Part shown: piece by piece, positions 1-10,292 of the stretch
Layout of the letters: every line of letters begins with the position of its first letter
Numbering within the stretch: position 1 is the first letter of the stretch
From: a virus
Lineage: Duplodnaviria; Heunggongvirae; Uroviricota; Caudoviricetes
IMG/VR virus record: IMGVR_UViG_2681813316_000013
Coordinates: 1-10,292 of that record
DNA length: 10,292 bases
Direction: 5' to 3' (one strand)
Notes under the pieces: generated by a model
What the model was told of the DNA's origin: nothing
The model's database searches: none
Seen by the model: only the letters and a program-made list of their open reading frames with translations
Position numbers and translations under genes: made by a program

Positions 1-469
1 TGCTGCTATTGGTGGTGGGGCTGTTGCCATAGCGTCTGTGCTCATCACTGGTCCGAGTGGTGACGATGGCCTGGAAGGTGTCAGCTACATACCATACGAA
101 GATATCGTTGGCGTATGGACTGTATGTCACGGACACACCGGAAAAGACATCATGCCCGGTAAAACGTATACCGAAGCAGAATGCAAAGCCCTCCTGAATA
201 AAGACCTTGCCACGGTCGCCAGACAAATAAACCCGTACATCAACGTCGATATACCGGAAACAACGCGCGGCGCTCTTTACTCGTTCGTTTACAACGTGGG
301 CGCTGGCAATTTCAGAACATCGACGCTTCTTCGCAAAATAAACCAGGGCGATATCAAAGGCGCATGTGATCAGCTACGGCGCTGGACATACGCTGGCGGT
401 AAGCAATGGAAAGGGCTGATGACTCGCCGTGAGATTGAGCGTGAAGTCTGTTTGTGGGGGCAACAATGA
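1..469 (+). CDS. R: SAR endolysin (phage lysozyme, T4-lysozyme-like GH24 family), 5'-partial; reading frame phase starts at position 2
   Basis: Frame is open from the window edge to TGA 467-469. Translation ...[49 protein letters not shown]... has a Gly/Ala-rich signal-anchor-release segment followed by a lysozyme core with E-8aa-D-5aa-T spacing (LEG...YEDIVGVWT) as in T4 lysozyme E11/D20/T26 and phage 21 R. The true start lies upstream of the window. Confidence 0.9.
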
Positions 470-903
470 GCAGAGTAACCGCGATTATCTACGTTCTGGT
501 CATCTGCCTCATCGTCTGCCTTTCATGGGCTGTTAATCATTACCGTGATAACGCCATCGCCTACAAAGAGCAGCGCGATAAAGCCACATCCATCATCGCT
601 GATATGCAGAAGCGGCAACGTGATGTAGCAGAACTTGACGCCAGATACACAAAGGAGCTTGCTGATGCTAATGCGACTATCGAAAGTCTCCGTGCTGATG
701 TTTCTGCTGGGCGTAAGCGCCTGCAAGTCGCCGCCACCTGTGCAAAGTCAACGACCGGAGCCAGCGGCATGGGCAATGGAGAAACCCTAGGACTTACAGC
801 AGATGCTGAACTCAATTATTACCGTCTCCGAAGTGGAATCGACAGGATAACCGCGCAGGTTAACTACTTGCAGGAGTACATTAGGACGCAATGCCTTCGA
901 TGA
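466..903 (+). CDS. Rz: Rz-like inner-membrane spanin (i-spanin)
   Basis: ATG 466-468 overlaps the R stop (ATGA). N-terminal TM segment ([20 protein letters not shown]) followed by a charged, coiled-coil-like periplasmic region, immediately downstream of the endolysin gene. The ORF track's GTG start at 454 is judged less likely. Confidence 0.85.
665..790 (+). CDS. Rz1: Rz1-like outer-membrane lipoprotein spanin (o-spanin), embedded in the +1 frame of Rz
   Basis: AAGGAG at 651-656 lies 8 nt before ATG 665. Translation [41 protein letters not shown] has a signal peptide with a lipobox-like VSAC and a short Pro-rich mature part; stop TAG 788-790. Fully nested inside Rz, the classic Rz/Rz1 arrangement. 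Alternative start ATG 671. Confidence 0.65.
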
Positions 904-975
904 TAGCGATAATTTTCCCATTATCTTTTATATGCGTGATTTTAGTTAGTTTTAGTCGCAACACGAATAAAACAG

Positions 976-1002
976 AGAACCACCCGCTATACGAGTGGTT
1001 CT
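976..1002. terminator. Convergent (bidirectional) terminator-like hairpin between Rz and a minus-strand ORF
   Basis: 8-bp stem AGAACCAC (976-983) / GTGGTTCT (995-1002) with an 11-nt loop. On the minus strand it is followed by CTGTTTTATTCG (good U-tract) and begins 17 nt after the stop of the minus ORF 1020-1250. On the plus strand the downstream tract (GATTTACACTTTT) is weaker. Confidence 0.4.
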
Positions 1003-1019
1003 GATTTACACTTTTGAAA

Positions 1020-1250
1020 CTAAAAGCTAAATACTTGAGCAAGAACAGCTAACGCTGCGCAAAAAGCAGCCCGTTTATTCCATTTACTTTGTATTTCAAT
1101 GGCTTTAAAACAACCCAGTGATGAGAAACTGCCTTGTTCCGTTTTTGGTGGGTGTTCTTTGGAAGATGCAAAACATGAAATAATCCAAAAAATGGCGGAA
1201 AAAATTCCAAAAATTATTGAAGGCAAATGATGCTCTTTCAAAAACTCCAT
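1020..1250 (-). CDS. Hypothetical small membrane protein (76 aa), moron candidate in the position where lambda carries bor but unrelated to Bor
   Basis: 76-codon ORF with a true ATG start (complement of 1248-1250) in roughly 40% GC DNA. Predicted TM helix (PSIIFGIFSAIFWIISCF) and hydrophobic C-terminus (AAFCAALAVLAQVF). Followed on its own strand by the hairpin plus U-tract at 976-1002. Only a weak SD (GAGAG); no family recognised. Confidence 0.35.
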   Translation of the reverse strand: MEFLKEHHLPSIIFGIFSAIFWIISCFASSKEHPPKTEQGSFSSLGCFKAIEIQSKWNKRAAFCAALAVLAQVFSF

Positions 1251-1862
1251 GACTTAACTCTCTTAAAAGTTGCTAAACATCGCTCGCAAACAAGAAAGAA
1301 AAGTTCTGTTGCGAGCACTCCACAATTTAAACGCCACACAAGCAGCTATTAGGTGGACGGTTCCAAGATTGCTATCAACTGCCACCCGAATACCGTCAAA
1401 ACTTGACGTCCAACCAAGAATTATTGAGTTGTAAACTCAACGCAATGATCTGGTTGGTATAAATGTGACATATGTCATGAATCGACTAGTTGAGATAGTC
1501 AAGATGGGCTTGCTTGACATCATCACCACAACCGGAGCCAACAATGGCAGATTGCGTTACCCAGATTTGATAAAGGCATTTTAGCCTGACATAACTATGC
1601 ACTGTATCGTCGCCGTATTCCCGCATCAACAGAGACCACAGCCCGAGAGGGAGACTCCTCTGCGCGAGTGTGCGGGGATAATCAAAAACGATACACACCG
1701 GGGTTTACCGTGTTAACGGAGCGCGGCGTTGTCCCCTCATGGTCGCTGGTCCGGTGCGATGGTGGAAGAAACCGGACGATGTGTTACCTCGCAAACTCTG
1801 TTATGTCATGTGTCTGATTTGTGATTTAAGTCGGATAATTGTCATTGCCATTAAGCAGAGGA

Positions 1863-1904
1863 TTGATGACCGACAGGGCTGCATTGTTAGAATAAGACTT
1901 ATTC
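1863..1904 (+). promoter_or_regulatory. Candidate sigma70 promoter with extended -10 and overlapping palindromic operator upstream of the TonB-C lipoprotein gene
   Basis: -35-like TTGATG (1863-1868), extended -10 TGtTAGAAT (1885-1893), and a perfect 7-1-7 palindrome GAATAAG-A-CTTATTC (1890-1904) overlapping the -10 and predicted start site, about 22 nt upstream of ATG 1926. Confidence 0.3.
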
Positions 1905-1925
1905 TTATCTATGCCGGGAATAAAA

Positions 1926-2252
1926 ATGAAAAGAAATCTTCCGTTAATTATTTTGTTGTCTTCTTTGGTTATGGGCTGTACGCAACATAAAACAGATATG
2001 CCTCGACAGTTGGTTAAGGCATTACCACAATATCCGGCCTATGCCGCGGCAAATTATATAAAGGGACGGGTTGATGTGAAGTTTGATATTGGTGCTGATG
2101 GTACTGTCACCCGAATTGAGTTTATCCGTTCAGAGCCGCACCATCTGTTTGATGAGCAGGTTGTAAAGGCGATGGCAAAATGGCGATTTGAGAAGGACAA
2201 GCCGCGTAAAGGCGTGAAGAAAACATTTATCTTTAGTCCTTCAGCACCCTGA
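1926..2252 (+). CDS. Lipoprotein with TonB C-terminal domain (free TonB-CTD, no TonB N-terminal anchor or Pro-rich spacer)
   Basis: Translation MKRNLPLIILLSSLVMGC/TQHK... has a signal peptide with lipobox-like VMGC and +2 Thr. The mature part ...PQYPAYAAANYIKGRVDVKFDIGADGTVTRIEFIRSEPHHLFDEQVVKAMAKWRFEKDKPRKGVKKTFIFSP matches E. coli TonB C-domain motifs (YPxxA...G.V.VKFD...DG.V...P...F...V..AM..WR.E..KP..G) as I recall them. Alternative start ATG 1911. Confidence 0.8.
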   Translation: MKRNLPLIILLSSLVMGCTQHKTDMPRQLVKALPQYPAYAAANYIKGRVDVKFDIGADGTVTRIEFIRSEPHHLFDEQVVKAMAKWRFEKDKPRKGVKKTFIFSPSAP

Positions 2253-2711
2253 TTATTTTATCAGAAGTTAATTATCACTCTGTTGCTATTCAGTACATCC
2301 CTGCAGGGTAAAGTCTTGTTTCGCCGGATATGAAGATGAAATATTGTTAGAAGACAGTAGCTACCGGTTCCTGTAACCGAACGTTCATTTCTCGTTATTT
2401 TTCATGCTGGCCGGGCGCAGGTGCTTTGCATCTGTTGCCAGCCTTCTCCTGCAGGCTTCAATAACCCATGCCGAAAAATTACCCGATCCCTTACGTTCAA
2501 GGGCAATATGGATTTGATTAATCATCTGGTTTGGGAAGCTTTATTTTTTGATGACATTGTGTTTTTCCGTGTTCAGTGCTGCTGATTTGTATTGTCTTAA
2601 GATGTCTTTACGTTAAGTTGACACAGATCAATTAATGCATGACTTGGACAAAATTGATTATTTGTCGTGGTTTTATGGTGTACGTGGGATGTGTGATGGT
2701 ATTTATATAAA

Positions 2712-2726
2712 TGATAATTATTATCA
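2712..2726. promoter_or_regulatory. Fur-box-like perfect 7-1-7 palindrome TGATAAT-T-ATTATCA
   Basis: TGATAATTATTATCA is a perfect inverted repeat. The enclosing 19-mer ATAAATGATAATTATTATC (2707-2725) matches the classical Fur consensus GATAATGATAATCATTATC at 15/19 positions. It lies 37 bp upstream of cosN in AT-rich DNA; the target gene is unclear. Confidence 0.3.
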
Positions 2727-2762
2727 TTTATTGGGTCCTTTCCGGCGATCCGGCAGGCTACG

Positions 2763-2774
2763 GGGCGGCGACCT
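2763..2774 (+). other. cosN: cosN, cohesive-end nicking site of the phage genome (lambda / phage 21 type 12-nt cohesive end)
   Basis: GGGCGGCGACCT at 2763-2774 followed by CGCGGGTTTTCGCTATTTATGAAAATTTTCCGG, which matches the lambda left end as I recall it. It sits about 195 bp upstream of the small terminase start, the same spacing as lambda cosN to Nu1. Confidence 0.85.
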
Positions 2775-2810
2775 CGCGGGTTTTCGCTATTTATGAAAAT
2801 TTTCCGGGAT

Positions 2811-2915
2811 CCATGTCCGGTTTCTCTTCAAGTTAACTATATGAAAAATATAAAAACAGGTCTTCTGTGAACCGGACATGAACAAAAAACAGACATGTAA
2901 ACCGGACATGACCGG
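2811..2915 (+). repeat. cosB: cosB-like region: three copies of a CCGGACATG element (candidate small-terminase binding sites R3/R2/R1) separated by an AT-rich spacer
   Basis: CATGTCCGG (2812-2820, inverted), AACCGGACATG (2870-2880) and AACCGGACATG (2900-2910, followed by ACCGG), plus a partial GACATG at 2892-2897. The A/T-rich stretch 2821-2860 between first and second copy is where an IHF-type bend site would be expected. All lie between cosN and the small terminase gene. Confidence 0.6.
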
Positions 2916-2957
2916 TTTTGTTGTGATTGTGAGGTGAGAGTTTTTGCGAGGTGAGGA

Positions 2958-3467
2958 GTGGCTACGCAGACTGAAGTTGCCAGGCATTTAAGTCTGACCG
3001 ATCGCCAGCTTCGCAGATTGCAGAAATTGCCGGGTGCCCCGATATCGAATAAGCGAGGGCAACTGGATCTGGATGCCTGGCGCGATTTTTACATATCGTA
3101 TCTGAGGAGAAGTAAAAACGATGTGCCTGATGGCGATAGCGAAGACGACTATGAGGAGAAATTGCTTATTGCCAGATGGGAACTGACAGCAGAACAGGCT
3201 GTTACACAGCAGTTAAAAAATGAGGTGTCAAAAGGAAAACTTATTGACACCGGGTTCTGTATTTTTGCCCTCAGTAAGCTGGCAATGGCGTTATCCAGTA
3301 CGCTTGATTCCATCCCTTTATCCATGCAGCGACAGTTTTCTGATTTAACACCGCGCCATCTTGACCATCTGAAAACCCTTATTGCTAAGGGGGCAAATCA
3401 GTGTGCGCGGGCAGGGGATAAATTACCGGATTTACTCGATGAATATATCAGAGCAACAACTGAATAA
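2958..3467 (+). CDS. nu1: Terminase small subunit (Nu1 family)
   Basis: GTG start at 2958, with GAGG at 2948-2951 six nt upstream. Translation aligns with lambda Nu1, especially the C-terminal two-thirds (…TGFCIFALSKLA…LDSIPLSMQRQFSDL…HLDHLK…LPDLLDEYI…). The N-terminal DNA-binding region is diverged. Stop TAA 3465-3467 overlaps the large terminase start. Confidence 0.9.
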   Translation: MATQTEVARHLSLTDRQLRRLQKLPGAPISNKRGQLDLDAWRDFYISYLRRSKNDVPDGDSEDDYEEKLLIARWELTAEQAVTQQLKNEVSKGKLIDTGFCIFALSKLAMALSSTLDSIPLSMQRQFSDLTPRHLDHLKTLIAKGANQCARAGDKLPDLLDEYIRATTE

Positions 3468-5367
3468 TATGATGGCTGCCGTTTCGGTTGCGCTGCAGCC
3501 TCTGGTCAGGGTTGTACCAATGACGGCAGTTGAATGGGCTGATCAAAATTATTATCTGCCTAAAGAATCTTCATATGGTGAGGGAGAATGGAAAACGCTG
3601 CCATTCCAGATCGCCATTATGAACTGTATGGGTAACGACCAGGTTCGCACGGTTAACCTGATTAAATCTGCCCGTGTTGGCTATACAAAGATGTTGCTGG
3701 GGGTGGTCGGGTATTTTATTGAGCATAAATCCCGAAACAGTCTGCTTTTTCAGCCCACGGATTCTGCCGCTGAAGATTTTATGAAGTCTCACGTGGAGGC
3801 GACGATTCGGAACGTGCCATGCCTGAAAGACCTTTCCCCATGGCTGGGGCGTAAACATCGTGACAATACTCTCACGCTGAAACGCTTTTCATCGGGCGTC
3901 GGTTTCTGGTGCCTGGGCGGCGCTGCCGCCAAAAACTACCGTGAAAAATCCGTGGACGTGGTCTGCTATGACGAACTTTCCTCGTTCGAGCCGGATGTCG
4001 AAAAAGAGGGCTCGCCAACCCTGCTGGGGGATAAGCGTATTGAGGGGTCGGTGTGGCCAAAATCCATTCGCGGCTCGACGCCTAAAATCAAAGGCACCTG
4101 CCAGATCGAAAAAGCCGCTAACGAGTCGGCGCATTTTATGCGTTTTTATGTGCCCTGCCCGCACTGTGGGGAGGAGCAGTATCTGAAATTTGGCGATGAG
4201 TCCACGCCTTTTGGGCTTAAATGGGAGAAGGACAGCCCTGAAAGTGTTTTCTACCTCTGTGAACATCATGGCTGCGTGATCCATCAGTCTGAACTGGACC
4301 AGAGCAACGGGCGGTGGATCTGTGAAAACACGGGCATGTGGACCCGTGACGGTCTGACGTTTTTCAGCGCCCGGGGTGATGAAATTCCGCCGCCGCGCTC
4401 CATCACGTTCCATATCTGGACGGCGTACAGTCCGTTCACCACCTGGGTACAGATTGTCTATGACTGGCTGGATGCACTGAAAGATCCCAACGGCCTGAAA
4501 ACCTTTGTGAACACCACGCTGGGCGAGACCTGGGAAGAGGCCGTGGGCGAAAAACTCGATCACCAGGTACTGATGGATAAGGTGGTGCGTTACACGGCGG
4601 CGGTGCCTGCCCGGGTGGTTTATCTGACGGCGGGCATTGACTCGCAGCGAAACCGTTTTGAGATGTATGTCTGGGGATGGGCTCCGGGAGAGGAAGCCTT
4701 TCTGGTGGATAAAATCATCATTATGGGGCGTCCTGATGAGGAAGAGACGCTGTTACGTGTGGATGCGGCGATCAACAAAAAATACCGCCATGCGGATGGC
4801 ACCGAAATGACTATTTCCCGTGTCTGCTGGGACACCGGGGGGATCGATGGTGAAATTGTTTATCAGAGATCAAAAAAACACGGTGTTTTCCGGGTGCTGC
4901 CGGTAAAAGGCGCATCTGTCTATGGCAAGCCGGTGATCACCATGCCAAAAACCCGCAATCAGCGGGGCGTGTATCTGTGTGAAGTGGGAACGGACACCGC
5001 AAAAGAAATTCTCTATGCCCGTATGAAAGCCGATCCCTCGCCTGCGGATGAAGCCACGTCGTATGCCATCCGTTTTCCTGATGATCCGGAGATTTTTTCG
5101 CAGACAGAGGCGCAGCAACTGGTGGCGGAAGAGCTGGTGGAGAAGTGGGAAAAAGGAAAGATGCGTCTGCTGTGGGATAACAAAAAGCGGCGTAACGAAG
5201 CGCTGGACTGCCTGGTGTATGCCTACGCGGCATTACGTGTGTCCGTGCAACGCTGGCAGCTTGATCTGGCTGTACTGGCAAAATCCCGGGAAGAAGAGAC
5301 GACCCGGCCAACCCTGAAAGAACTGGCAGCGAAGCTGTCCGGAGGAGTGAATGGTTACAGTCGCTGA
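3439..5367 (+). CDS. A: Terminase large subunit (gpA family; ATPase and nuclease)
   Basis: ATG 3439 gives MNISEQQLNN..., colinear with lambda gpA (MNISNSQVNR...) over about 642 aa, including TAVEWAD.NYYLPKES, KSARVGY.KMLLG, GFWCLGG.AAKNYREKSVDV, GDKRIEGSVWPKSIRGSTPK, WTAYSPFTTWVQIV, VNTTLGETWE, KKRRNEALDC. The ORF track's start at 3382 is an upstream in-frame extension with no support. Confidence 0.95.
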   Translation: MNISEQQLNNMMAAVSVALQPLVRVVPMTAVEWADQNYYLPKESSYGEGEWKTLPFQIAIMNCMGNDQVRTVNLIKSARVGYTKMLLGVVGYFIEHKSRNSLLFQPTDSAAEDFMKSHVEATIRNVPCLKDLSPWLGRKHRDNTLTLKRFSSGVGFWCLGGAAAKNYREKSVDVVCYDELSSFEPDVEKEGSPTLLGDKRIEGSVWPKSIRGSTPKIKGTCQIEKAANESAHFMRFYVPCPHCGEEQYLKFGDESTPFGLKWEKDSPESVFYLCEHHGCVIHQSELDQSNGRWICENTGMWTRDGLTFFSARGDEIPPPRSITFHIWTAYSPFTTWVQIVYDWLDALKDPNGLKTFVNTTLGETWEEAVGEKLDHQVLMDKVVRYTAAVPARVVYLTAGIDSQRNRFEMYVWGWAPGEEAFLVDKIIIMGRPDEEETLLRVDAAINKKYRHADGTEMTISRVCWDTGGIDGEIVYQRSKKHGVFRVLPVKGASVYGKPVITMPKTRNQRGVYLCEVGTDTAKEILYARMKADPSPADEATSYAIRFPDDPEIFSQTEAQQLVAEELVEKWEKGKMRLLWDNKKRRNEALDCLVYAYAALRVSVQRWQLDLAVLAKSREEETTRPTLKELAAKLSGGVNGYSR

Positions 5368-5557
5368 ACTGCAGGCGCTGCGTCAGGCGCGCCTTGATTT
5401 ATTAACCGGTAAACGGGTGGTGTCTGTCCAGAAAGATGGTCGCAGAATTGAATATACGGCGGCTTCTCTGGATGAGCTTAACCGGGCGATCAATGATGCG
5501 GAGTCGGTACTGGGGACAACCCGGCGTCGCCGTCGTCCGCTGGGAGTGAGGTTATGA
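5351..5557 (+). CDS. W: Head-tail joining / head completion protein gpW
   Basis: 68 aa; LTGKRVVSVQKDGRRIEYTAASLDEL matches lambda W ([27 protein letters not shown]). Start overlaps the end of the large terminase gene; stop overlaps the portal start (ATGA). Confidence 0.9.
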   Translation: MVTVAELQALRQARLDLLTGKRVVSVQKDGRRIEYTAASLDELNRAINDAESVLGTTRRRRRPLGVRL

Positions 5558-7146
5558 AACGAACGCCTGTCCTGATTGATGTGAACGGCGTTCCGCTTCG
5601 TGAGAGTCTCAGCTACAACGGGGGCGGTGCAGGATTTGGCGGGCAAATGGCGGAGTGGTTGCCACCGGCGCAGAGTGCCGATGCGGCCCTGCTGCCCGCG
5701 TTGCGTCTGGGGAATGCCCGGGCAGATGATCTGGTGCGCAATAACGGAATAGCGGCCAATGCGGTGGCCCTGCATAAGGATCACATTGTCGGGCATATGT
5801 TTCTTATCAGCTACCGTCCGAACTGGCGCTGGCTGGGGATGCGGGAGACCGCAGCAAAAAGCTTTGTCGATGAGGTGGAGGCGGCCTGGTCGGAATACGC
5901 CGAAGGGATGTCTGGCGAGATCGACGTGGAAGGAAAACGCACGTTCACGGAATTTATCCGTGAAGGTGTGGGCGTTCATGCGTTTAACGGCGAAATCTTT
6001 GTGCAGCCGGTCTGGGATACGGAAACCACGCAGTTATTCCGTACGCGTTTTAAAGCCGTGAGTCCGAAACGGGTGGACACGCCAGGACACGGTATGGGGA
6101 ACCGTTTTCTGCGGGCCGGGGTGGAGGTCGATCGATATGGCCGTGCCGTTGCGTACCATATCTGTGAGGATGATTTTCCGTTCTCCGGGAGTGGACGATG
6201 GGAACGGATCCCGCGTGAACTTCCCACCGGGCGTCCGGCCATGCTGCATATTTTCGAGCCGGTGGAGGACGGGCAGACCCGTGGGGCCAACCAGTTTTAC
6301 AGCGTCATGGAACGGCTGAAGATGCTCGATTCCCTGCAGGCAACACAGCTTCAGTCGGCCATTGTGAAAGCCATGTATGCAGCGACGATTGAAAGTGACC
6401 TTGATACCGAAAAGGCCTTTGAATATATCGCCGGTGCGCCGCAGGGGCAGAAGGATAATCCGCTTATTAATATTCTGGAGAAGTTCTCCAGCTGGTATGA
6501 CACGAATAACGTGACGCTGGGTGGTGTCAAAATTCCGCACCTTTTCCCCGGGGATGATCTGAAACTACAGACTGCGCAGGATTCAGACAATGGATTTTCG
6601 GCGCTTGAACAGGCGCTGCTGCGGTATATCGCCGCCGGTCTTGGCGTTTCCTACGAACAGTTGTCCCGTGATTACTCGAAGGTCAGTTATTCAAGTGCCA
6701 GGGCCTCTGCCAATGAGTCGTGGCGCTATTTTATGGGGCGGCGAAAATTTATTGCGGCCCGGCTGGCCACGCAGATGTTTTCCTGCTGGCTGGAAGAGGC
6801 ACTTCTTCGGGGGATTATCCGTCCGCCACGGGCGCGTTTTGATTTTTATCAGGCGCGATCAGCCTGGTCACGGGCAGAGTGGATTGGTGCCGGAAGAATG
6901 GCCATTGACGGGCTCAAGGAGGTTCAGGAATCGGTGATGCGCATTGAGGCCGGACTGAGCACGTATGAGAAAGAGCTGGCGCTGATGGGCGAGGATTATC
7001 AGGACATTTTCCGCCAGCAGGTCAGGGAATCTGCAGAGCGGCAAAAAGCCGGACTCTCACGTCCGGTGTGGATAGCGCAGGCGTATCAGCAGCAGATAGC
7101 GGAGAGTCGCAGGCCGGAAGAGGAGACAACACCCCGTGAGACGTAA
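5554..7146 (+). CDS. B: Portal protein (gpB family)
   Basis: 530 aa, colinear with lambda gpB: GNARADDLVRNNG, EPVEDGQTRGAN.FYSVME..KMLD.LQ.TQLQSAIVKAMYAATIES, LQTAQD.DNG.S..EQ.LLRYIAAGLGVSYEQLSR, ARASANESW.YFMGRRKF, GRMAIDGLKEVQE.VM.IEAGLSTYEKE. Confidence 0.95.
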   Translation: MKRTPVLIDVNGVPLRESLSYNGGGAGFGGQMAEWLPPAQSADAALLPALRLGNARADDLVRNNGIAANAVALHKDHIVGHMFLISYRPNWRWLGMRETAAKSFVDEVEAAWSEYAEGMSGEIDVEGKRTFTEFIREGVGVHAFNGEIFVQPVWDTETTQLFRTRFKAVSPKRVDTPGHGMGNRFLRAGVEVDRYGRAVAYHICEDDFPFSGSGRWERIPRELPTGRPAMLHIFEPVEDGQTRGANQFYSVMERLKMLDSLQATQLQSAIVKAMYAATIESDLDTEKAFEYIAGAPQGQKDNPLINILEKFSSWYDTNNVTLGGVKIPHLFPGDDLKLQTAQDSDNGFSALEQALLRYIAAGLGVSYEQLSRDYSKVSYSSARASANESWRYFMGRRKFIAARLATQMFSCWLEEALLRGIIRPPRARFDFYQARSAWSRAEWIGAGRMAIDGLKEVQESVMRIEAGLSTYEKELALMGEDYQDIFRQQVRESAERQKAGLSRPVWIAQAYQQQIAESRRPEEETTPRET

Positions 7147-8641
7147 TCTTTCACACATTATTGCCGCAGCATTCAATGAACCGCTGCTTCTGGAGCCCGC
7201 CTATGCGCGGGTTTTCTTTTGCGCGCTCGGGCGCGAGATGGGGGCAGCAAGTCTTTCGGTACCACAGCAGCAGGTACAGCTTGATGCTCCCGGAATGCTG
7301 GCTGAAACGGACGAGTACATGGCCGGAGGTAAACGACCGGCCCGTGTTTACCGGGTGGTGAACGGTATTGCTGTACTGCCGGTGATCGGCACGCTGGTGC
7401 ACCGGCTGGGGGGGATGCGGCCATTTTCCGGAATGACAGGCTATGACGGCATTGTCGCCTGTCTTCAGCAGGCAATGGCGGATAGCCAGGTGCGGGGCGT
7501 ACTGCTGGACATTGACAGTCCGGGCGGGCAGGCCGCCGGCGCGTTTGACTGCGCTGACATGATTTACCGCCTCCGTCAGCAGAAGCCGGTCTGGGCACTG
7601 TGCAATGACACGGCCTGTTCTGCAGCCATGCTGCTGGCGTCGGCCTGCTCCCGACGGCTGGTTACCCAGACATCCCGTATCGGCTCCATTGGCGTGATGA
7701 TGAGCCATGTCAGCTATGCCGGTCATCTGGCGCAGGCCGGTGTGGATATCACGCTGATTTACTCAGGGGCGCACAAGGTGGATGGCAATCAGTTTGAAGC
7801 CTTACCGGCAGAGGTTCGCCAGGACATGCAGCAGCGCATTGATGCGGCGCGCCGGATGTTTGCCGAAAAAGTGGCCATGTTTACCGGTCTGTCTGTTGAT
7901 GCCGTCACGGGAACAGAGGCCGCCGTTTTTGAAGGTCAGTCCGGCATTGATGCCGGGCTGGCGGATGAATTAGTCAATGCGTCGGATGCCATCAGTGTGA
8001 TGGCCACGGCGCTGAACAGTAATGTCAGAGGAGGCACTATGCCGCAATTAACTGCAACGGAAGCCGCCGCGCAGGAGAACCAGCGAGTGATGGGGATCCT
8101 GACATGCCAGGAAGCGAAAGGACGTGAACAGCTTGCCACGATGCTGGCAGGACAACAGGGCATGAGCGTTGAACAGGCCCGGGCGATTCTGGCCGCGGCG
8201 GCACCGCAGCAGCCGGTGGCATCCACGCAGAGTGAAGCCGATCGCATTATGGCGTGTGAAGAAGCGAACGGTCGTGAACAACTGGCGGCAACGCTGGCGG
8301 CGATGCCGGAGATGACGGTGGAAAAAGCCCGCCCGATCCTGGCTGCTTCACCGCAGGCGGATGCCGGACCCTCACTCCGTGATCAGATCATGGCACTGGA
8401 TGAGGCAAAAGGGGCTGAGGCGCAGGCTGAACAGCTGGCTGCCTGCCCGGGAATGACTGTGGAGAGCGCCCGGGCTGTGCTGGCTGCGGGATCAGGTAAG
8501 GCAGAACCGGTCTCTGCATCCACAACCGCCCTGTTTGAACGCATCATGGCGAACCATTCACCGGCAGCGGTACAGGGTGGCGTGCCACAGACGTCAGCAG
8601 ACGGTGATGCGGACGTGAAAATGCTCATGGCTATGCCATGA
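7136..8641 (+). CDS. C: Prohead protease / scaffold fusion protein (gpC family, ClpP/S49-like peptidase domain with C-terminal scaffold domain)
   Basis: GTG start 7136 overlapping the portal stop. The N-terminal two-thirds aligns with lambda gpC (AFNEPL.LEPAYARVFFCAL, NGIAVLPV.GTLV, SGMTGY.GI...LQQA, GGQ.AGAFDCAD.I.R.R..KPVWAL, RRLVTQT.R.GSIGVMM.H, GV.ITLIYSG.HKVDGN, DAGLADELVN). The C-terminal third carries scaffold-type motifs. Confidence 0.9.
   Translation: MRRNLSHIIAAAFNEPLLLEPAYARVFFCALGREMGAASLSVPQQQVQLDAPGMLAETDEYMAGGKRPARVYRVVNGIAVLPVIGTLVHRLGGMRPFSGMTGYDGIVACLQQAMADSQVRGVLLDIDSPGGQAAGAFDCADMIYRLRQQKPVWALCNDTACSAAMLLASACSRRLVTQTSRIGSIGVMMSHVSYAGHLAQAGVDITLIYSGAHKVDGNQFEALPAEVRQDMQQRIDAARRMFAEKVAMFTGLSVDAVTGTEAAVFEGQSGIDAGLADELVNASDAISVMATALNSNVRGGTMPQLTATEAAAQENQRVMGILTCQEAKGREQLATMLAGQQGMSVEQARAILAAAAPQQPVASTQSEADRIMACEEANGREQLAATLAAMPEMTVEKARPILAASPQADAGPSLRDQIMALDEAKGAEAQAEQLAACPGMTVESARAVLAAGSGKAEPVSASTTALFERIMANHSPAAVQGGVPQTSADGDADVKMLMAMP
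8039..8641 (+). CDS. nu3: Nu3-like scaffolding protein from an internal in-frame start within C
   Basis: ATG 8039 is in frame with C and preceded by GAGGAGG (8028-8034). The product MPQLTATEAAAQ... (200 aa) corresponds to the Nu3 portion of lambda C/Nu3 and contains the RIMGIL..EEA.GRE-type motif. Confidence 0.55.
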   Translation: MPQLTATEAAAQENQRVMGILTCQEAKGREQLATMLAGQQGMSVEQARAILAAAAPQQPVASTQSEADRIMACEEANGREQLAATLAAMPEMTVEKARPILAASPQADAGPSLRDQIMALDEAKGAEAQAEQLAACPGMTVESARAVLAAGSGKAEPVSASTTALFERIMANHSPAAVQGGVPQTSADGDADVKMLMAMP

Positions 8642-8677
8642 AGTCAGTGCTGACCATCAACAGGAGGTTTTTACAAT

Positions 8678-9025
8678 ATGGTAACGAAAACCATCACTGA
8701 ACAGCGTGCGGAAGTACGTATTTTTGCCGGTAATGATCCGGCTCATACCGCCACAGGCAGCAGCGGGATTTCCTCGGCAACACCGGCACTGACGCCCCTG
8801 ATGCTGGATGAAGCTACCGGGAAACTGGTGGTCTGGGACGGACAGAAAGCCGGTAGTGCGGTTGGCATACTGGTACTGCCGCTTGAAGGCACAGAGACGG
8901 TACTGACGTATTACAAGTCGGGGACCTTTGCGACGGAGGCAATCCGCTGGCCTGACAGTGTGGATGAACACAAAAAGGCAAATGCCTTTGCCGGCAGTGC
9001 CCTGAGTCACGCGGCGCTGCCGTAA
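8678..9025 (+). CDS. D: Head decoration protein (gpD family)
   Basis: AGGAGG at 8663-8668, then ATG 8678. 115 aa with NDPAHTAT, TPLMLD...KLV.WDG...G.AVGIL, YKSGTF, AFAG.A.S shared with lambda gpD. Confidence 0.9.
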   Translation: MVTKTITEQRAEVRIFAGNDPAHTATGSSGISSATPALTPLMLDEATGKLVVWDGQKAGSAVGILVLPLEGTETVLTYYKSGTFATEAIRWPDSVDEHKKANAFAGSALSHAALP

Positions 9026-9082
9026 CACGTTATCAGGCCACCGCGGTGGCCTGACTGATTTCTGAATGAAAGGAACTGATTT

Positions 9083-10111
9083 ATGGGATTGTTTACGACC
9101 CGCCAGTTACTCGGTTATACCGAACAAAAAGTGAAATTTCGTGCGCTGTTTCTGGAGCTGTTTTTCCGCCGTACGGTGAATTTCCATACCGAAGAGGTGA
9201 TGCTGGACAAAATTACCGGAAAAACGCCGGTGGCGGCCTATGTCTCCCCGGTTGTTGAAGGAAAAGTGCTGCGTCATCGCGGTGGTGAAACCCGCGTGTT
9301 ACGTCCGGGCTACGTCAAGCCGAAACACGAATTTAATTACCAGCAGGCGGTTGAGCGTCTTCCCGGTGAAGATCCGGCTCAGCTGAACGACCCGGCCTAC
9401 CGTCGTCTGCGTATCATCACCGATAACCTCAAACAGGAAGAGCATGCCATTGTCCAGGTGGAAGAAATGCAGGCGGTGAATGCCGTGCTGTATGGCAAAT
9501 ACACCATGGAAGGGGATCAGTTTGATACTGTCGAGGTGGATTTTGGACGCTCTGAAGGAAATAACATTGAGCAGGCCGACGGTAAAAAATGGTCTGAGCA
9601 GGACCGTGATACGTTTGATCCGACGCATGATATTGACCTCTACTGCGATCAGGCCAGCGGTCTTGTGAATATTGCCATTATGGACGGTACTGTCTGGCGT
9701 CTGCTGAATGGTTTTAAGCTGTTCCGCGAAAAACTGGATACCCGTCGCGGCTCAAATTCACAACTCGAAACGGCAGTGAAAGACCTGGGAGCGGTGGTGT
9801 CTTTCAAAGGGTATTACGGTGATCTGGCCATTGTGGTGGCGAAAACGTCTTATGTGGCAGACGACGGTACCGAAAAACGTTATCTGCCGGTGGGCACACT
9901 GGTCCTGGGGAATACGGCAGCAGAGGGCATTCGTTGCTATGGTGCCATTCAGGATGCGCAGGCGTTGTCCGAAGGTGTGGTGGCCTCTTCCCGTTATCCG
10001 AAACACTGGCTGACTGTGGGCGATCCGGCCCGTGAATTCACCATGACGCAGTCCGCACCGCTGATGGTGCTGCCGGATCCGGATGAGTTTGTGGTGGTGC
10101 AGGTGAAATAA
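9083..10111 (+). CDS. E: Major capsid protein (gpE family, HK97 fold)
   Basis: AAAGGA upstream of ATG 9083. 342 aa colinear with lambda gpE: FTTEKV.L..I, YVSP.V.G.V.R.RGG, PGYVKPKHE, DPAYRR.RII..N...EE.AI.QVEEMQAV.AVL.GKYTM.G, KLDTRRGSNS.LETAVKDLG, YPK.W.T.GDPAREFTM.QSAPLM.L.DPDEFV.VQ. Confidence 0.95.
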   Translation: MGLFTTRQLLGYTEQKVKFRALFLELFFRRTVNFHTEEVMLDKITGKTPVAAYVSPVVEGKVLRHRGGETRVLRPGYVKPKHEFNYQQAVERLPGEDPAQLNDPAYRRLRIITDNLKQEEHAIVQVEEMQAVNAVLYGKYTMEGDQFDTVEVDFGRSEGNNIEQADGKKWSEQDRDTFDPTHDIDLYCDQASGLVNIAIMDGTVWRLLNGFKLFREKLDTRRGSNSQLETAVKDLGAVVSFKGYYGDLAIVVAKTSYVADDGTEKRYLPVGTLVLGNTAAEGIRCYGAIQDAQALSEGVVASSRYPKHWLTVGDPAREFTMTQSAPLMVLPDPDEFVVVQVK

Positions 10112-10119
10112 TCCGTGAG

Positions 10120-10148
10120 CGGGGGCGAAATGCCCCCGTGTCTTTTTT
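10120..10148 (+). terminator. Rho-independent terminator-like hairpin after the major capsid gene
   Basis: Stem CGGGGGC (10120-10126) / GCCCCCG (10132-10138), 5-nt loop GAAAT, followed by TGTCTTTTTTC. Begins 9 nt after the E stop (TAA 10109-10111) and ends before the FI ribosome-binding site. Confidence 0.6.
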
Positions 10149-10162
10149 CACAGGAGGCTGAG

Positions 10163-10292
10163 ATGGCAACAAAAGAAGAAAATCTGAATCGTCTTCGTCA
10201 ACTGGCTGGCCTGCTGGGGCGCGAGGCGGATATGTCGGGGAGTGCTGCGGATATTGCGCAACGTGTGTCTGAGTGGGAAGAGGAGCTTGCTG
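10163..10292 (+). CDS. FI: DNA-packaging protein gpFI family, 3'-partial (continues beyond window)
   Basis: AGGAGG at 10153-10158, then ATG 10163. Translation MATKEENLNRLRQLAGLLGREADMSGSAADIAQRVSEWEEELA resembles the lambda FI N-terminus (MTKDELIARLRSLGEQLNRDVSLTGTKEELALRVAELKEEL) and is in the correct position after E. Confidence 0.8.
   Translation, partial: MATKEENLNRLRQLAGLLGREADMSGSAADIAQRVSEWEEELA

Follow-up and report, generated by a model that had tools for sequence, protein, structure and literature searches.

The 10,292-nucleotide window analysed here, comprising positions 1 to 10,292 of the IMG/VR virus record IMGVR_UViG_2681813316_000013 (Caudoviricetes), carries a head-gene module in the order Nu1, A, W, B, C, D, E, in which a C-like gene lies between the portal gene and the D/E pair. 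This gene, at 7136-8641, is by its sequence a protease-scaffold gene of the C/Nu3 type, and a first-pass annotation of the same DNA had proposed that the scaffold part of its product contains a motif repeated three times. The features of the locus are given below, with the copies of the motif called boxes and, for each box, the extent of the hidden Markov model (HMM) match followed by that of the copy in the first-pass annotation and that of the corresponding feature in phage 21 (aa, amino acids).

7136-8641, + strand: 501-aa prohead protease-scaffold gene, homologue of lambda C and phage 21 gene 5 (open reading frame (ORF) list, Pfam, PHROG)
7571-8014, + strand: S49 serine peptidase domain, aa 146-293 (Pfam PF01343)
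8028-8034, + strand: putative internal Shine-Dalgarno sequence GAGGAGG, read as Arg-Gly-Gly codons in the long frame (sequence)
8039-8641, + strand: predicted nested in-frame gene for a 200-aa Nu3-like scaffolding protein, homologue of phage 21 gene 6 (annotation of M81255 and OL657228, about 99% DNA identity)
8075-8212, + strand: box 1 (HMM match; first-pass copy 8084-8212; phage 21 'Tri1 box' 8106-8209)
8234-8356, + strand: box 2 (HMM match; first-pass copy 8243-8356; phage 21 'Tri box' 8246-8356)
8375-8494, + strand: box 3 (HMM match; first-pass copy 8387-8494; phage 21 'Tri3 box' 8387-8500)
8495-8638, + strand: C-terminal tail, common with single-copy relatives (alignments)

The 501-aa ORF has a GTG start and overlaps the end of the portal gene. 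Its match to Peptidase_S49 (PF01343) is strong (E = 7e-35; 120.7 bits, cutoff 24.9), and PHROG 53, 'head maturation protease', spans the ORF from end to end (E = 9e-228). The protein is 98% identical to its counterpart in phage ev017 and 55% identical to lambda C over aa 3-346. Within the peptidase domain, Ser162 aligns with lambda C Ser166 (NDTACSAAMLL in the window, NDMNCSAGQLL in lambda, with NDxxCSA common to both), the residue reported to be the catalytic nucleophile (Medina et al. 2010).

Self-alignment of the protein's C-terminal part bears out the proposal of three tandem, diverged copies of a motif of roughly 40 aa. The three peptides named in the first-pass annotation fall at aa 317-359, 370-407 and 418-453 (nt 8084-8212, 8243-8356 and 8387-8494); pairwise Smith-Waterman local alignment between them gives scores of 101, 83 and 97 as against 25 +/- 5 for shuffled sequences, corresponding to z-scores of 15.7, 10.7 and 14.8, and 0 of 1000 composition-preserving shuffles scored as well. 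The copies are 48-61% identical to one another as protein and 55-63% identical as DNA, Tandem Repeats Finder reported no tandem array in the DNA, and a seed-based DNA repeat search found only 12-nt seeds in common, at spacings of 150 and 153 nt. The repeat is visible at the protein level only, where PHROG 8399 ('head scaffolding protein'), a single-copy profile, matches three separate stretches of the protein. The first-pass annotation gave lambda a single copy, and correctly: lambda C (439 aa) contains one, with the string quoted for it, and gp5 of phi80 (447 aa) likewise has one. Beyond box 3, the tail contains a conserved helix, ALFERIMANHSP, at 8528-8563 (lambda counterpart ALDRLMQGAP), as well as an acidic stretch, and it finishes in the conserved KMLMAMP (DLLNTPV in lambda). 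Both tail elements, the (A)LFxR(I/F)M helix at 8528-8563 and the LLxxxP-type end at 8612-8638, are common to one-, three- and four-box relatives, and they are alternative candidates for capsid-docking signals.

From its predicted nested gene, the window would make a 200-aa Nu3-like scaffold by use of an internal start. The in-frame ATG at 8039 lies 4 nt after GAGGAGG and is the sole in-frame start in aa 180-320 with a strong Shine-Dalgarno sequence (SD). Examination of homologous sites shows that the arrangement AGGAGG-N4-ATG (Gly-Gly-X-Met) is kept in lambda (at 5342), phi80, ev017, E. coli, Shigella, E. albertii and Trabulsiella, and several alpha-proteobacterial loci, along with one from Desulfarculus, have an SD-ATG pair 30-38 codons upstream of the box. 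The phi80 record (FN582354) annotates gene 6 as an "internal in-frame translational start within gene 5", and gene callers elsewhere give products of 199-200 aa from the equivalent of the 8039 start (P0002, P0003, P0007). On sequence evidence, the ribosome-binding site (RBS) placed at 8028-8034 in the first-pass annotation matches the start that is conserved for the nested gene in lambda, phi80 and phage 21.

The annotation of lambda itself differs at this point. RefSeq lambda (NC_001416) starts nu3 at 5132, giving 201 aa, with a poor Shine-Dalgarno context, and the methionine encoded there corresponds to an isoleucine in the window; the conserved SD-ATG at 5342 would give 131 aa, and the phi80 and phage 21 records use the homologous site. 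Because the 5132 ATG has a poor Shine-Dalgarno sequence and its methionine is not conserved, the site of the 5342 type appears to be the better candidate for the scaffold start across the family. In the RefSeq E. coli records listed, only an 'S49 family peptidase' is found under the match; since the nested gene is not named, the scaffold protein would be missing from those annotated proteomes. Under automatic annotation as currently practised, the repeats stay hidden, and so does the nested scaffold gene.

The triplication is already known from phage 21, as the correspondence of the sequences indicates. A tblastn search of phage records with the 200-aa product recovered phage 21 at 97.5% identity, together with features named "Tri1 box", "Tri box" and "Tri3 box". 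GenBank M81255.1, "Bacteriophage 21 head gene operon", which we presume to be the record of Smith and Feiss 1993, Gene 126:1, annotates gene 5 (501 aa), a putative RBS and a nested gene 6 (200 aa), as well as repeat_region features at 5542-5645, 5682-5792 and 5823-5936, each noted "function unknown; putative". Projected onto the window, these features fall at 8106-8209, 8246-8356 and 8387-8500 and are the same three copies that were picked out in the first-pass annotation. The alignment of the window with M81255 is free of gaps at about 99% DNA identity, with 3 substitutions in 8084-8494, and the complete phage 21 genome of 2022 (OL657228) gives the two products as "capsid protease/scaffolding protein" and "scaffolding protein". 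More broadly, phage 21 and ev017, which both belong to the genus Jouyvirus, have about 95% identity to the window over positions 3513-10284. Since M81255 annotates both gene 6 and all three Tri boxes for phage 21, to which the window is about 99% identical, there is no novelty in the finding; the triplication has stood in the phage 21 GenBank feature table since the early 1990s and matters little as a discovery. OL657228 also lists 'CII binding sites' at 5314-5327 and 5548-5561, which map to 8044-8057 and 8278-8291 (- strand) of the window, within the scaffold gene; these are matches to the pattern ttgynnnnnnttgy alone, one of them inside box 2, and are probably due to chance.

Copy number was counted on the complete ORFs of fetched loci together with a library of representative proteins, the homologue search having given mostly truncated entries; the species survey used one genome per species. 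The three-box form is ordinary, about one complete E. coli genome in three having it: the three-box nested gene, at a coverage of at least 80%, was found in 1864 of 5426, with up to five copies per genome, and a lambda-type single-box segment was found in 3201 of the 5426. Among complete ORFs, three boxes occur in Escherichia, Shigella, E. albertii, Trabulsiella and Providencia; Buttiauxella has two, and Vibrio, Caulobacter, Rhizobium, Paracoccus, Desulfarculus and the other loci have one. A box profile built from 21 instances and searched against 1.84 billion representative proteins matched 1077 clusters at E <= 1e-3; of the best 150 of these, a set biased to multi-copy proteins since their scores are cumulative, single-box proteins number 137, two-box proteins 10 and three-box proteins three. 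The single copy is the norm for the motif and is the state of nearly all the clusters. Typically, the box lies 80-90 residues from the C terminus of a protease-like protein of 400-550 aa, and it also occurs inside stand-alone proteins of 120-200 aa. The genomes that carry the three-box gene measure 43-54 kb, similar to lambda, and the idea that capsid size might follow copy number was dropped, there being no hint in these sizes of a different capsid. The analysis gave no support to the first-pass suggestion that the expanded scaffold could alter procapsid assembly or copy number. Phage 21 has lambda-sized heads, and its head genes form viable hybrids with those of lambda.

A comparison across homologues, which the first-pass annotation had suggested, shows that repeat number varies from 1 to 4 in enterobacterial prophages. 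Inspection of the variants revealed an E. coli form, P0027, with four boxes of which boxes 2-4 are near-identical, and two-copy forms that comprise a box1/box2 hybrid (P0020) or have lost box 2 (P0021 and P0016). The two-copy variants P0020, P0021 and P0016 are evidently deletion products, and they and P0027 point to ongoing unequal recombination or gene conversion. In a tree of individual units, the single boxes of lambda and phi80 fall together with box 1 of the window, box 2 forms a pair with the second box of a Salmonella homologue, and box 3 belongs to a cluster that also holds the third boxes of Salmonella P0029, Trabulsiella and P0093; P0027 has its boxes 2-4 in one group, and the two boxes of each of two unrelated proteins, P0104 and P0137, pair within the protein. 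The first groupings indicate that the triplication predates the split of the E. coli and Salmonella prophage lineages, and the pairing within proteins indicates that duplications arose independently several times. The claim of an old duplication, as opposed to an assembly artefact, is thus upheld both by the divergence of the copies and by the orthologous positions of the boxes in E. coli and Salmonella prophages, from which its age is deduced. Independent two-box duplications were seen in P0104, P0137, P0105, P0159 and P0204, unrelated scaffold or protease proteins from outside the enterobacteria, one of which has a PTPPTPPTPP linker between its boxes.

Modelling of the box and of the scaffold gave results of different quality. 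For a single box with the 21-sequence alignment, AlphaFold2 returned three short helices at a predicted local distance difference test score (pLDDT) of 86.9 and a predicted template-modelling score (pTM) of 0.63; for the 200-aa product the values were 65 and 0.27, with the boxes at about 70-80 and the linkers below 50, and the low pTM indicates that no fixed packing of box against box is predicted. In the tail, further helices are predicted at Nu3-like residues 160-173 and 191-196, and the stretch separating the two has low confidence. A Foldseek search against predicted viral structures recovered the same mini-domain in other phage S49 proteases, including that of a Synechococcus virus, at template-modelling (TM) scores of 0.80-0.84; the corresponding search of the PDB with the 200-aa model was uninterpretable, the model being a flexible string. 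Each box is predicted with confidence to be a three-helix mini-domain, with flexible linkers between the boxes.

Comparison with E. coli, E. albertii and Trabulsiella alleles gave ratios of nonsynonymous to synonymous substitution rates (dN/dS) of 0.0-0.32 over the boxes (0.03-0.2 for box 1, 0-0.24 for box 2 and 0.05-0.32 for box 3), lower than in the linkers and the tail, indicating that all three boxes are maintained by purifying selection. The consensus residues EAKGRE, LA, PGMT and A..LAA are retained in every box across genera. Searches of Pfam and NCBIfam found no family for the motif, and sequence searches of the PDB, with the protein and with the motif profile, found no relative. A 24-residue chain of 9hqv that contains AKGREALAE belongs to a Toxoplasma mitoribosome and was set aside as a chance match.

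The remaining genes of the window form a lambda-like late region, in which the named genes below belong to the Pfam families expected of them.

38-469: lysozyme
454-903: Rz
between Rz and Nu1: small accessory region
2958-3467: Nu1
3382-5367: terminase A
5351-5557: W
5554-7146: portal B
8678-9025: decoration protein D
9083-10111: major capsid protein E

Between Rz and Nu1, where prophage accessory genes are often found, an ORF of 113 aa at 1911-2252 (+ strand) has a signal sequence resembling that of a lipoprotein (…LVMGC) together with a TonB C-terminal domain (PF03544, E = 2.7e-15). A second accessory-region ORF, which lies at 1020-1250 (- strand) between the lysis genes and cos/Nu1, encodes a hydrophobic protein of 76 aa that has no Pfam match.

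In identity and architecture, the locus is almost certainly a phage-21-type version of the lambda C/Nu3 gene pair, and the explanation as a whole, a pair of this type with three boxes, is likely to be correct. One frame would give rise to two proteins, a 501-aa S49 prohead protease from 7136 and a 200-aa scaffold from 8039, and the C-terminal part common to both would hold the three Tri boxes followed by the conserved tail. Each box would be an independently folding three-helix mini-domain of about 40 residues, joined to its neighbours by short flexible linkers; boxes 2 and 3 would derive from an old internal duplication and have been kept by selection, box 1 would be the lambda orthologue, and copy number would change by unequal recombination between boxes. 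We tentatively regard the box as a protein-protein docking module, a reasonable assignment of mechanism that nonetheless falls short of being probable. Each box may dock scaffold and protease either to further chains of the scaffold or to the shell's inside as it assembles, and the same modules would recruit both proteins, since the boxes are common to the two; the phage 21-type scaffold would in that case be a trivalent version of lambda's monovalent one. Candidate partners for the box are suggested by lambda, in which yeast two-hybrid tests show Nu3 to interact with E, with C and with itself, and portal incorporation depends on Nu3 (PMC3224144).

A wider proposition, possible if rather doubtful, is that, throughout the S49-protease/scaffold family with its roughly 1000 protein clusters in Proteobacteria and some cyanophages, the Tri box serves as the universal mini-domain for docking a partner, and that a copy number of 1 to 4, altered time and again by unequal recombination, tunes the valency of the scaffold. 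If true, valency would tune scaffold-to-capsid stoichiometry or assembly kinetics, and nature would have supplied an allelic series for asking how multivalency drives procapsid nucleation. The natural variants with 1 to 4 copies would make a ready-made experimental series, and the survey gives a laboratory working on lambda or phage 21 assembly a cheap start.

Other roles for the boxes can be weighed against docking of this kind. One is that the boxes are self-association modules that build the core of the scaffold while the conserved C-terminal tail docks the capsid, so that three boxes would confer stronger self-association than that of lambda's weak dimer; the idea as a whole strikes us as somewhat unlikely. 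Targeting to the shell by a C-terminal tail is known for proteases and scaffolds of other phages, and the conservation of the tail motifs FxxxM and LLxxxP-end in one-, three- and four-copy forms is consistent with such a division of labour, as is the Nu3-Nu3 interaction in yeast two-hybrid tests (PMC3224144). However, at the pTM already given, AlphaFold2 predicts no packing between boxes within a chain. An unlikely alternative partner is the portal protein, whose dodecamer would be recruited more firmly by a greater number of boxes: Nu3 is required for portal incorporation, and the motif is conserved across distant phages beyond what would be expected for a capsid-protein partner (61% identity between lambda and the window), yet the yeast two-hybrid screen found no interaction with the portal (B) at all (PMC3224144).

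It is also quite improbable that boxes 2 and 3 are a tolerated spacer that replaces the low-complexity N-terminal segment of lambda's scaffold, with length alone being of consequence. The distance from the start to the box is 49 aa in lambda and 13 aa in the window, for totals of 131 and 200 aa, and because the lambda segment before the box is longer, total length differs less than copy number; nevertheless, the dN/dS values of boxes 2 and 3 lie within 0.0-0.32, under those of the linkers, and every box keeps its consensus residues across genera. More improbable still is a reading of the second half of each box as a helix-hairpin-helix (HhH) DNA-binding motif, by which the scaffold or protease would contact DNA. 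The Pfam HhH family (PF00633) matches box 3 only, at 13.1-15.3 bits, and the reading was rejected because all scores fall below the gathering cutoff of 24 bits; in addition, the match to RuvA is to domain III, a RuvB-binding three-helix bundle and not an HhH domain, and the boxes are acidic or neutral rather than basic. The lambda scaffold, moreover, is degraded and lost before DNA enters. Finally, the alanine-rich character of the sequence might raise the suspicion that the repeat is artefactual, a product of chance, of low complexity or of assembly, an explanation that we reject as having a negligible chance of being right: composition-preserving shuffles never reach the observed scores, and the same boxes are found in the 1864 complete genomes and in independently sequenced phages.

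Of the known systems, genes 5 and 6 of phage 21 match the window in their 501-aa and 200-aa products, in the RBS and in the positions of all three boxes, with a few substitutions in the tail (AMFEHFM in phage 21 for ALFERIM here); the window itself is a copy of prophage type whose nested gene is 100% identical to that of E. coli O121 RM8352. The gpC homologues of Gifsy-1 and other Salmonella prophages (NC_010392; P0029, P0033-P0038) likewise have three boxes in positional orthology with those of the window and the same internal start context (MPELTATEAAAQENQRVMG), whereas they are only 53-65% identical to it and have a longer C-terminal end (…IPGTMAAEGEDKS). Lambda C/Nu3 resembles the window in its location between portal B and D/E, in an S49 protease part of about 55-60% identity, in a nested in-frame scaffold that keeps AGGAGG-N4-ATG, and in its tail. 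It differs in possessing one box, orthologous to box 1, where the window has three, in the Ser/Thr/Ala/Gln-rich composition of its 49-aa segment between the Nu3 start and the box, in an overall identity of 26% between the scaffold parts, and in the discrepancy between its RefSeq nu3 start and the conserved SD-ATG. Genes 5 and 6 of phi80 (FN582354) also nest a scaffold at the homologous GGAGG-N4-ATG, although that scaffold is 137 aa long with a single box. Further candidates for near systems are the P22 scaffolding protein's helix-turn-helix coat-binding domain and, as binding modules built of three-helix bundles in tandem, staphylococcal protein A, GA, UBA/CUE and RuvA domain III.
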